Assembly (NCBI GenBank): GCA_019058245.1
Contig: JAHPZJ010000013.1
Location: 265,166 to 329,165 of the forward strand
DNA: 64,000 nucleotides
Source of the DNA: Promethearchaeota archaeon
GTDB taxonomy: Archaea; Asgardarchaeota; Lokiarchaeia; Sigyniarchaeales; SOKP01
Direction: 5' to 3'
Of the stretch, positions 9,060-44,076 are shown piece after piece; the first letter of the stretch is position 1; the number at the start of each line of letters is the position of its first letter. Made by a program: the position numbers and the translations under genes. The notes beneath the pieces were generated by a model, which saw only the letters and a list, made by a program, of their open reading frames with translations, was not told the origin of the DNA and did not search any database.

Positions 9060-9611
9060 ATGAGTAATAGTAGAGAAAAATTTACATTTAAAGTTACAGT
9101 TATTGGTGATGGCGCAGTTGGGAAGACTTCTTTAATAAGAAAATTTACTAAAGGAAATTTCCAAGAACAATATATTCAAACTATCGGAGCTCAATTTTCT
9201 AAATTTATTGAAGAAATAGAGGGGGATAGATGCAAATTATTTTTCTGGGATATTGCAGGTCAAGATACGTTTCATTTTTTAAGACCTGCTTTTTACAAGG
9301 CAAGCGTAGCTGCGATAATTGTGTTTTCTCTTGAAGAGAATGATTTTGGAAAGGAAAGTTTTAATCATGTAACTAATTGGCAGAATGAAATAACCAAATT
9401 CTGTGGAGACATTCCCATTTTATTATTCGGAAATAAAGTTGATTTAGTTGATGAAGAAAAATTAGACGATAGCAGTATATTAAAATTAGTAGAAGAAAAA
9501 ACAATGTTAGGGTATTATCGAACTTCTGCGAAAACAGGTCAAGGAGTTCATAAAGCTTTTCAAAAAATAATAAATGATTTATATTCTAAATTTAAGACGG
9601 TATCTGTGTAA
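9060..9611 (+). CDS. Rab-like small GTPase
   Basis: G1 GDGAVGKT, switch I YIQTIG, G3 WDIAGQ, G4 NKVD, G5 TSAKTG; no C-terminal Cys. Confidence 0.93.
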   Translation: MSNSREKFTFKVTVIGDGAVGKTSLIRKFTKGNFQEQYIQTIGAQFSKFIEEIEGDRCKLFFWDIAGQDTFHFLRPAFYKASVAAIIVFSLEENDFGKESFNHVTNWQNEITKFCGDIPILLFGNKVDLVDEEKLDDSSILKLVEEKTMLGYYRTSAKTGQGVHKAFQKIINDLYSKFKTVSV

Positions 9612-9692
9612 CCTGTGATTCTTGAGTATAAAATTTTTATATTATTATAAGAATATGGGAAATTCTGAGCTCAAAATTTTGAACAATAAAAT

Positions 9693-42800: not shown

Positions 42801-44076
42801 AATTTGAGTAAGAAACCCAAGCTCCACTCATTATACCTACTGAGATATTTATATTTTGATTATTAATTGGATTGTTAAATATATTCGAATTATTTATCCA
42901 TAAAAGAAGATTTATTTTACCACTATAATGCCATTGATTTCTTCCCTTATCAACAACATCTTTTAAACCAATTGTATATACTTCCTTGTTATTTATTGCA
43001 AAATAAATGTAATTTCCATTAGATTCCATAGCATATTCAGCATAATATGCAAAATTAATTTCAGCATCAACCACTTTACCTCTTGGAATTGTAATATTTT
43101 GATAGATTTCAGAATAATCATCTTCAAAATAAACAGCTCTAAAAGGATAATCAGGATCATCATATCTATATGGAGTAGAATATAATGAGGTATACATAGC
43201 AGTATTATTTCCAATCCAACCAGATCCATAATTATCAGTATCTATATTTGTATTGTTCCCCCAATAATCTAAATTATCTAAAAATCCTGAGCTTGTATTA
43301 ACAAATTCATAACGATCTATATCATATCCATAGTCAGTAGTATCACTACTAGAACCAATAGTTATATTTATTCCATCACCTAGAATCCAAGGAGAAAAGA
43401 AATCATCTTTATCACCTGTATCACAATAACATAATTTATCATATTTATTCCAAATGAAAACACAATCATAAAAATCTTCAAACCTAATCCTTTCAAAATG
43501 AACTCTTATAGCTAAAGCTCCAGGAAGATATAATTTAGAATGAATGTTGTTAGAATCGGTGGGATCTTCATCTAATCCATTATCGTAATTATGGTAGGGA
43601 TATCCAGGAGGATCTTTATTATATAAATCAACATCCTCACTAAATACAGTAGCATTATGAATAAATCCGCTATTATTCACCCATTCTCGAGTATCTTGAA
43701 TATTATTTAGAGAGGTTTCAATTCTTGATACGTTCCAGTCATGTTCTTCATCTAAATAATAGGTTACACTTGTTTCTTCGTTATTAGATAATGATACTTC
43801 TTGATTTGTTTTATATAAATTACCATTATCTGTTATATTTAAAGCAGACTGTATTCCTTCGAATAAAATTGAATCACCATTAGCAGATTCCAGATTTTGA
43901 CTAAAATTATCGAGATCCTTATCAGTATTATTAAAATTAGTATTAACATGCAATATATGGTTGAAAAATATCAAATTTATTAAAAAAGTTAAAAAGATGA
44001 TAAACGAGATTAAAACTATTTTCTGTTTCCTTTTTTTAAATATTATTGATTCTATATTTTTTTGCATAATAAACAA
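39847..44076 (-). CDS. Large single-pass membrane protein: CUB-like and Ig-like ectodomain, TM, cytoplasmic longin + wHTH
   Basis: N-terminal hydrophobic signal/anchor; PGALAIRVHF...YD...SPW..GD CUB-like segment; beta-rich repeats with many N-x-S/T; TM at ~40597-40662; IVVIHRLSGIPIY...LFSGFIQAI longin. Confidence 0.8.
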   Translation of the reverse strand: MFIMQKNIESIIFKKRKQKIVLISFIIFLTFLINLIFFNHILHVNTNFNNTDKDLDNFSQNLESANGDSILFEGIQSALNITDNGNLYKTNQEVSLSNNEETSVTYYLDEEHDWNVSRIETSLNNIQDTREWVNNSGFIHNATVFSEDVDLYNKDPPGYPYHNYDNGLDEDPTDSNNIHSKLYLPGALAIRVHFERIRFEDFYDCVFIWNKYDKLCYCDTGDKDDFFSPWILGDGINITIGSSSDTTDYGYDIDRYEFVNTSSGFLDNLDYWGNNTNIDTDNYGSGWIGNNTAMYTSLYSTPYRYDDPDYPFRAVYFEDDYSEIYQNITIPRGKVVDAEINFAYYAEYAMESNGNYIYFAINNKEVYTIGLKDVVDKGRNQWHYSGKINLLLWINNSNIFNNPINNQNINISVGIMSGAWVSYSNYLDAFQQVIWFDNVSFTLTTIANSTQEGIDLVVKTLSYEENIIDGNEWGTGSLNLEGMWDSNPIILTFNTTSPNLSFMLNTSLFGYHRTSTKINQLNDEGINYKILKNGSIYWEFYHNLYMPSQYTDFEFEIFKPSNWRILEALDPTLQSRSFDGGEIGDEFLKINMDNAIFPGWWSFKATSPNYLNSSNIKLIKQGQWVSNANFTTGESTNISAQLDYKGMIPSNTSEINLIVYHPNGTIFFTESKFPSNGNVTFSQITFNSFNAIGGSYEYTLFWSNGTALGGLNSSFIVKHNSTLLLLKPNDAKLDLITEGLVGDIIPIRIFLKDAENNLSISDSLISYNWTDGTRYFDESALGIYETVLDTSDLLSRGLYNIVINSSKLGFFICNLTLEINLGEETNLQVLESDYNIELHANSTIIFKLTDFDGDPIDGALVDISIANPSLYTIKNPEDGVYNIEFSTVFINAIGIYQLSINFSAIAYEPQYYTYQFQIIQQSVNLSAYINYQQIYENAPIGTTFNEALNISARAISNIDEEFLSDGSITYISENYEKRLSENLDYWYNASIIFSPENFSLGINLVYLKFEHPNYRTATFGFQILINQIEINIDPVNFQDSINAEVGETITIQIRLLDPKTNASIENASMTYKWKYGLGTLNETSIGFYQAQVELPEGLNGTYTFDLIITPDGSTYETTQTSFVVVISEPIVDKPENPNYLLWSIIGILISIVGVLGALSYRTYFYMPKKRKIEAKLIAKTQRFKDIKNVQAIVVIHRLSGIPIYSQSYSILEKHKKELFSGFIQAITMIGEEFAEKDGIDGESTDKQKGYGVEKMMELDFKQFYCLIADIEDLRVVIILEERSSERLKEQLSHLILALNLKLSEELENWDGSLDKFQILIPEILNEYFELYYKDSFKLASNINLLTLKKDKNLSKMEMRVINVVQSISKDNIISNLNSIVDLVHEENKNLIIEAIESLIRQKIIIPLNN

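Follow-up and report, generated by a model that had tools for sequence, protein, structure and literature searches.

Three eukaryotic complexes that switch off small GTPases share a signature in their catalytic subunits, in which a GP motif in the longin domain is combined with an arginine finger: FLCN-FNIP, GATOR1 and C9orf72-SMCR8 (PMC12290439; PMC8213707; PMC9473554). In the third of these the two elements are divided between partners, since C9orf72 carries the GP motif and the finger comes from SMCR8 (PMC12290439; PMC8213707; PMC9473554). Related components are known from Asgard archaea. Longin-GTPase and longin-GTPase-roadblock architectures have been catalogued in MK-D1 and modelled as homodimers, and Asgard GTPase genes generally do not lie in operons with their regulators (PMC10933270); a conserved operon of LAMTOR-like, Rab-like and DENN genes, together with NPRL2-like longins, has also been reported (bioRxiv 10.1101/2020.10.19.343400). 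Here we describe a Lokiarchaeial locus in which longin and GTPase are joined in one chain. It lies in a 64,000-nucleotide stretch of a Promethearchaeota archaeon genome (contig JAHPZJ010000013.1, positions 265166–329165; hereafter the window) and centres on two sister genes, called 487 and 499 after the lengths of their products in amino acids (aa). Both encode a longin domain fused to a G domain and a roadblock domain, and only 487 carries a candidate arginine finger.

We propose that the functional core of this locus is a Rag-like switch with a built-in longin GTPase-activating protein (GAP), including a 487/499 heterodimer. We regard this overall reading as evenly poised between right and wrong; the broader claim that the fusions contain a built-in GAP of some kind, predicted from sequence, is likely. 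An earlier description of the window from its letters alone (the sequence-only reading) had gone further, seeing a Rag, FLCN, GATOR1 and TRAPP-like toolkit that might form one signalling pathway across positions 9060–44076. Its Rag and FLCN-like parts hold, in a more specific form than was claimed, but a pathway spanning the whole region is unsupported. The window belongs to contig C13 of genome G000 (3.09 Mb, 76% complete), and its close homologues and related loci carry mostly Promethearchaeota (Lokiarchaeia) labels.

Results

The 487-aa protein (31636–33099, + strand) joins a longin bearing both the GP motif and the arginine to a Rag-like G domain and a roadblock domain, and matches Gtr1_RagA (E 1e-25) and Folliculin (E 0.002). 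Its G3 and G4 motifs are canonical. The top fold matches of residues 182–485 are LokiRagO, RagA/C and Gtr1/2 (Rag G domain plus C-terminal roadblock domain, Z 21.5–25.8), with longins also matched, so that by fold 487 shows the G domain and C-terminal roadblock that define a Rag GTPase. The candidate arginine finger, Arg108 (codon 31957–31959, + strand), occupies a conserved loop position, which the single-chain model (predicted local distance difference test, pLDDT, 70; predicted template modelling score, pTM, 0.60) places between strands 4 and 5. Residues G38, P39, R108, G109 and Q241 are present in 100% of 120 homologues, and ARG is retained in 13 of 13 distant orthologues.

The 499-aa paralogue (22139–23638, – strand) has the same longin-G-roadblock layout with a variant G4 motif (S/T-K-x-D). 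Among 120 homologues it keeps the GP motif in 99%, while position 112 is variable (S 25%, H 14%) and the finger loop is degenerate; ARG is missing from all eight distant orthologues compared, and in family f2 (f1, f2 and f4 are our labels for families) the switch-II glutamine is often lost. Arg112 of 499 had appeared invariant in a first alignment, which the orthologue comparison exposed as chance. The G domains of 499 and 487 are sisters in the tree (Shimodaira-Hasegawa-like approximate likelihood ratio test, SH-aLRT, 92). The two genes are therefore sister duplicates of one longin-G-roadblock fusion, with GP in both and the arginine only in 487, an asymmetry that holds across families. A further division into RagA (487) and RagC (499), drawn from the family f2 motifs WDxGGQ/HKMD versus WDIPG/TKVD, was rejected when 499 matched no RagC entry.

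The window holds five N-terminal longin fusions, all of one family. In fold their longins resemble 8YQG, a Lokiarchaeal longin (Z 18.5–19.1), and, within the C9orf72-SMCR8 entry 7O2W, chain A (Z 13.6, root-mean-square deviation 3.0, 145 residues), which identifies them as uDENN-type. Folliculin was the only Pfam family matched repeatedly, by 18 of 58 longin members, mostly below cut-off (best E 1e-5). The GP motif stands before strand 2 in all five window copies and in 92–95% of 155 aligned sequences, and it is at this GP strand only that SMCR8 aligns with the fused longins, in a short match (SMCR8 58–80). The loop arginine is invariant in 487, where it falls inside the Folliculin Pfam match, and conserved in the Rab fusions described below, but not in 499. 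The fused longins have no C-terminal DENN or NPRL2 winged helix-turn-helix (wHTH) region. Because the G domain follows the longin directly, we claim that these longins work like those of FLCN, SMCR8 and NPRL2, not that they are their orthologues.

Within the class, all 61 genomes have the longin family. Outside it, the 15 best longin matches from other Asgard classes retain the RG loop and show no G domain in the surrounding DNA retrieved; two of them lie directly beside a Rag-like GTPase gene. Loci L239 and L240, from another Asgard family, encode ~1500-aa proteins with an RG-loop longin directly upstream of a Rag-like GTPase gene. G000 itself has four more GP/Arg longins (C14:105848–107330, C14:128002–129550, C5:18460–19371 and C8:122797–126189): one directly behind a GTPase gene, one inside a 1130-aa GTPase and two fused to receiver domains, one of which adjoins a Rag-like GTPase.

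The same longin also precedes Rab-like G domains. Three tandem 347-aa fusions with GP and Arg82 (10287–11330, 11699–12742 and 12801–13844, all – strand) form one locally duplicated lineage (one clade, SH-aLRT 99). A fold search with the full protein was filled by G-domain matches; an AlphaFold2 model (pLDDT 91, pTM 0.79) again puts the arginine between strands 4 and 5, in the connecting loop. Across such fusions the arginine is kept in 63 of 68, and the G domain keeps its catalytic glutamine in 58 of 63. The five that lack the arginine also lack GP (5/5, versus 4/61), and the tree forces at least two independent events of joint loss. These fusions lie near the conserved block described below in family f1 and ~77 kb from it in genome G038.

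We modelled 487 and 499 together. The complex scored 0.46, against 0.00 for the best control, within a range (at or below 0.60) reached in calibration by only seven solved pairs and both of the mismatched pairs that passed. Its runs shared at least 78% of contacts, with partner pLDDT of at least 76. The mark itself was reached by 58 of 80 solved pairs and 2 of 110 mismatched pairs. Since similar complexes, the Rag dimers, have already been solved, the pass may reflect memory or likeness. In our best reading 487 and 499 probably form a heterodimer, for which the model gives weak support.

These observations suggest how such a switch could operate. The two chains would make two contacts, one between roadblock domains, as in Rag GTPases, and one between longins, as in SMCR8 and C9orf72. 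By analogy with the eukaryotic complexes, the longin pair would cup a GTP-bound G domain, where Arg108 and Gln241 could complete the active site and drive GTP hydrolysis. In this scheme 499 would be the holder, and 487 would supply both finger and substrate: because 499 often loses its switch-II glutamine, the likeliest substrate would be the G domain of 487, with the 322-aa Rag-like protein described below as the alternative. The three longin-Rab fusions might act in the same way as symmetric dimers.

Both genes belong to a conserved block of 13 genes on mixed strands (20283–39804) that has the same order in G038, a genome of family f2: archaeosortase H, 499, an AIR-synthase-like gene, a SLOG gene, the 322-aa Rag-like gene, a NERD-like gene and 487, then six more, namely transglutaminase-like, longin-wHTH, L13e-like, 164-aa unknown, methyltransferase and CxxCxxCC-protein genes. 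The two genomes share 13 reciprocal best hits here, with 10 strand switches. A control over 1.34 Mb of G038 gave 491 reciprocal best hits, 300 of them singletons, and blocks of 13 (this one), 9, 7, 6 and 6, a ranking in which the region was picked after the fact and the G000 assembly is fragmented. A second mixed-strand block conserved with G038, of 9 genes, lies at G000 C14:41892–57076.

Conservation decays stepwise with distance. In family f2, G038 and G036 retain the 13 genes alike in order and relative orientation, and G030 still holds the 322-aa gene, a zinc-ribbon roadblock gene, 487 and the longin-wHTH gene together. G025, G028 and G032 retain the neighbourhood as two halves. In G033, of family f4, the 322-aa gene, 487, a Rab fusion and a longin-wHTH homologue are separated by 60 kb to 2 Mb. 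We counted retention around 487 in 80 related loci, mostly of the same family, taking as denominators the loci with full flank. Upstream, the NERD-like and zinc-ribbon roadblock genes are present in 49 of 49 loci each and the 322-aa gene in 48 of 49; downstream, the L13e-like, longin-wHTH, 164-aa and methyltransferase genes are each present in 44 of 44, and a transmembrane longin gene in 38 of 44. The block has nine unrelated housekeeping genes among its 13, and around 487 unrelated genes are retained as well as the signalling genes. Synteny across Lokiarchaeia, whose absence would have counted against the sequence-only reading, is kept between two families, which favours a core of that reading, but it is scattered in a third, and the nine unrelated genes share in it equally. 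The description of the genes as interleaved with housekeeping genes and not one operon is borne out by the mixed strands of the block.

The neighbourhood is old and unusually stable, yet layered and not specific to signalling genes, because unrelated genes are kept equally and the V4R, Rab 9060 and transmembrane longin genes discussed below vary. We read the span as a long-standing gene neighbourhood, shared by two Lokiarchaeial families and slow to rearrange, with later local additions, and not as one pathway.

Two genes of the neighbourhood could join the switch. The 322-aa Rag-like G domain-roadblock protein (26327–27295, + strand) is a close homologue of LokiRagO (PDB 8YL2; phmmer E 2.8e-85 over residues 4–319), and its gene adjoins 487 or 499 in G025, G028, G030, G032, G036 and G038. 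It may work apart from 487/499 or be their second substrate. Downstream of it lies a gene for a zinc ribbon, a long linker and a roadblock-like domain (27470–28546, + strand), retained as given above in the family loci and in G030; a homologue in G038 was not found with this query. The called start of its open reading frame (ORF) is a TTG that precedes the ribbon motif region by one codon, and the true start may be non-standard.

The fullest form of our proposal makes 487/499 a two-gene archaeal Rag heterodimer and longin GAP dimer at once, with both asymmetries, of catalytic against holder longin and of canonical against variant G domain, arising from a single duplication of a self-GAP fusion, and joins it in a physical module to the LokiRagO homologue and the zinc-ribbon roadblock protein, kept together across two families. 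We put this forward tentatively, as possible but doubtful.

Several observations weigh against the heterodimeric GAP. The 487 and 499 genes lie on opposite strands ~8 kb apart and are not an operon, and in G032, where the trio of 487, 499 and the 322-aa gene is split, the two are ~80 kb apart. Family f4 yielded the Arg-bearing gene and no 499, in genomes 63–88% complete, which makes 499 possibly dispensable. Longins mostly serve as guanine-nucleotide exchange factors (GEFs) or platforms. PDB sequence searches for a finger alignment to FLCN, NPRL2 or SMCR8 returned only 8YQG and the short SMCR8 GP-strand match, and no residue-level alignment to FLCN Arg164 or SMCR8 Arg147, which we take to be the fingers; the loop arginine is a candidate equivalent of these by its loop position in the model, the Pfam match and the known motifs. 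In family f4, G033 also has a free-standing 179-aa longin with GP and no RG loop (L016:6365–6904), 1.4 kb from the sole longin-Rag-roadblock gene found there. It is possible, from this single case, that it is an unfused holder.

The split in G032 and the state of family f4 also fit a different explanation, in which the fused longins are true GAPs that act as homodimers or in trans, 499 is a drifted paralogue with its own job, and the proximity of the two genes is a trace of old duplication. For GTPases that contain a longin, the supplement of Tran et al. (PMC10933270) gives homodimers as the predicted form; LokiRagO entry 8YL2 is titled a homotetramer, and close cousins can pass the complex test. 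We nevertheless consider this explanation rather unlikely, since 499 keeps GP in 99% of homologues without the arginine, the pattern of a holder subunit, and since 487 and 499 are retained together in families f1 and f2.

A second alternative gives the arginine a structural or ligand-binding role, makes the longins dimerization or GEF platforms and treats the block as neutral ancestral order near the L13e-like gene. It would accommodate the unrelated majority of the block and the second mixed-strand block shared by the same two genomes. 8YQG, a crystallized relative, is a dimer although it carries GP without an RG loop, and some longins joined to receiver domains, where there is no GTPase, share the motif. 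Set against this, GP and the arginine are conserved jointly and lost jointly, the loop position is exposed, the fused G domains retain the catalytic glutamine (in the Rab fusions at the rate given above), and the motif pair has been described as specific to GAP longins (PMC12290439). We think this alternative quite unlikely.

The remaining genes of the span bear on the wider pathway. Every item of the sequence-only inventory is present, although the V4R match is weak. The four Rab-like GTPases begin at 9060 (+), 10287 (–), 11699 (–) and 12801 (–) (Pfam Ras, E 1e-42 to 1e-47) and the three Rag/Arf-like ones at 22139 (–), 26327 (+) and 31636 (+) (Gtr1_RagA, E 3e-20, 1e-24 and 1e-25); in the tree these seven are four lineages, namely the longin-Rab trio, the 487/499 sisters, the 322-aa Rag and Rab 9060. 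Of the four roadblock-like domains, the C-terminal one of 31636 resembles MglB (fold match, Z 13.6), those of 22139 and 26327 are tied to it through jackhmmer, and that of 27470 falls in a family of 29 members, Pfam Robl_LC7 proteins among them.

G000 as a whole has ~81 small GTPases, 34 roadblock-like and 36 receptor-tail-type longin-like genes, in total 147 of 2716 genes. The span 9060–44076 holds 11 such genes among 29, against 1.57 expected, and is the densest window in the genome; none of 2000 gene shuffles reached equal density in any window. Local density therefore exceeds the genome background, which likewise favours a core of the sequence-only reading, also with adjacent genes collapsed (8 against 1.33 expected, p=0.0135), in a test whose family models were seeded from this very window, which favours it. 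With GTPases alone, adjacent genes collapsed, p=0.225, and a window on contig C31 is almost as dense (8). A single family accounts for the excess: the N-terminal longin model has five strong matches, all inside the span, and seven weaker G000 relatives outside it are mostly stand-alone or receiver-domain fusions. The C31 cluster (14339–49941) contains six Rab-like GTPases and V4R, longin-like and roadblock genes, and adjoins TBP, CDC48-like AAA protein and arginyl-tRNA-synthetase-like genes.

The transmembrane longin gene (39847–44076, – strand) encodes a 1409-aa surface protein with hydrophobic segments at residues 17–35 and 1137–1155, 43 N-x-S/T sequons and a longin-like + wHTH cytoplasmic tail. 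It is one of four paralogues in G000. It lies beside the block only in family f1, and there in most cases; it is missing from the block in family f2 and in genus g13, and the genomes without it there are G036, G038, G030, G046 and G067. Its tail and the soluble longin-like + wHTH protein of the block (34530–35165, + strand; also in G038, G036 and G030) form one 36-member family (jackhmmer E 2e-28). Neither carries a GP or RG motif, the GP-longin model does not match them, and hhalign to GP longins gives a probability of 0.2%. They match a TrmB-type HTH (E 0.018), have no PDB sequence match and in the Atlas return only unnamed Asgard clusters; their longin fold is putative. They are thus not GP/Arg longins, and the GATOR1 (NPRL2/3) label once given to them describes architecture only.

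The V4R-like protein (19195–19788, + strand) matches Pfam V4R below cut-off (E 6.5e-5) and MsvR at E 6e-7. The stand-alone Rab-like GTPase (9060–9611, + strand) is unrelated to the longin-Rab fusions and clusters in the tree with paralogues on C31, C8 and C2. Among seven same-genus regions compared, G000 and G024 are the only ones with these two genes at this site; both genes are recent arrivals. A TRAPP-like unit consequently finds no stable linkage of V4R with longin and Rab genes. In five same-genus relatives (e.g. L028, L031 and L026) a divergent TBP-like gene, missing in G000, holds the V4R slot. By eye, 1138–5892, 45424–50982 and 57265–61603 contain a threonine-catabolism pair, a 4-hydroxybutyryl-CoA-dehydratase-like gene, an aminotransferase, an ADP-forming acyl-CoA synthetase and Hdr/Mvh genes. 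None of these is in the cross-family block, and the genes for amino-acid fermentation thus lie outside it.

The idea that the whole 35 kb is an outside-in amino-acid-sensing pathway, from a surface receptor longin through the soluble longin-wHTH protein to the GTPases, with V4R as a TRAPP-like part, can draw on the density of the span, on the kinship of receptor tail and soluble protein and on their places at the block in 38 and 44 of 44 family loci, but is very unlikely given that V4R and Rab 9060 are newcomers, that the receptor gene is one of several paralogues and is off the block beyond part of family f1, that its longin and the soluble one lack GP and arginine and do not align with the GAP type, and that retention is as good for housekeeping as for signalling genes while the fermentation genes stand outside.

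Other genes in or beside the block merit brief description. Archaeosortase H (20283–21182; NF041736, E 3e-96) is overlapped at its start by a 77-aa membrane-type ORF (20072–20305) conserved in 5 of 5 relatives checked. The secreted transglutaminase-like protein (33123–34379) has a C-terminal transmembrane helix and could be a sortase substrate. An ATP-cone/NrdD-like protein (29668–31476) appears truncated, and many relatives have only a shorter or inverted match there. At 35260–35859 an L13e-like N-terminus, a Lys-rich linker and a helix-hairpin-helix domain are fused. A bacterial promoter and terminator scan, of a type ill-suited to archaea, gave chance-level results.

Discussion

The layout of the fusions and the GP/Arg motif have each been published, separately; we found no published work that joins them or describes this block. 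For LokiRagO, LokiRagM and 8YQG we found no published account, though unpublished or subscription work may exist. The present analysis contributes a test of density, a ranking of synteny and a division of the locus into core and passengers. They bear on two open points: the target GTPases of Asgard GP/arginine longins (PMC12290439), and the matching of regulators to GTPases without operons (PMC10933270). Candidate substrates, of the Rag-like and Rab-like kinds, can be read from the fusions, and the neighbourhood points to candidate partners: 487, 499, the 322-aa Rag and the zinc-ribbon roadblock protein. At stake is whether FLCN/GATOR1-type catalysis, with its asymmetry of catalytic and holder subunits, exists in archaea.

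Among described systems, the locus shares with C9orf72-SMCR8 (ARF GAP), FLCN-FNIP2 (RagC/D GAP) and GATOR1 NPRL2-NPRL3 (RagA/B GAP) the GP longin fold and the association with Rag/Arf-like and Rab-like G domains. Unlike these systems, it has no DENN domains and carries the longin in the same chain as the GTPase, and its GAP role is a prediction from sequence. The Asgard 'Folliculin/SMCR8 longin domain-containing' proteins (PMC12290439) likewise combine GP with a candidate arginine finger; that paper does not mention fusions and leaves the partner GTPase open, whereas in this locus Rag-like and Rab-like G domains share a chain with the longin. The MK-D1 longin-GTPase(-roadblock) proteins have the same architectures, to which our analysis adds, relative to the sections of PMC10933270 considered, the longin arginine, the Arg+/Arg– pair and the conserved neighbourhood.

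Like RagA/B-RagC/D (Gtr1-Gtr2) and LokiRagO/LokiRagM (8YL2, 8ZLA, 9M28), the Rag-like genes pair a G domain with a C-terminal roadblock, at the Z scores given above, and have a TSI(F/Y) G5 motif. They differ from Rag systems in their Arf-like G1–G3 motifs and in the extra N-terminal longin of two of the three; no Ragulator or membrane anchor was identified, and there is no mTOR. The Asgard LAMTOR-like/Rab-like/DENN operon likewise keeps roadblock, GTPase and FLCN-related genes together in a conserved neighbourhood, but it is co-oriented and includes a DENN protein, whereas this block has mixed-strand Rag-like fusions and no DENN domain was detected. The closest likeness is to SMCR8/C9orf72, in which one member has the loop arginine and its sister has GP but no arginine. 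The asymmetry of 487 and 499 is probably a Lokiarchaeial parallel to the eukaryotic complexes, not their direct ancestor.

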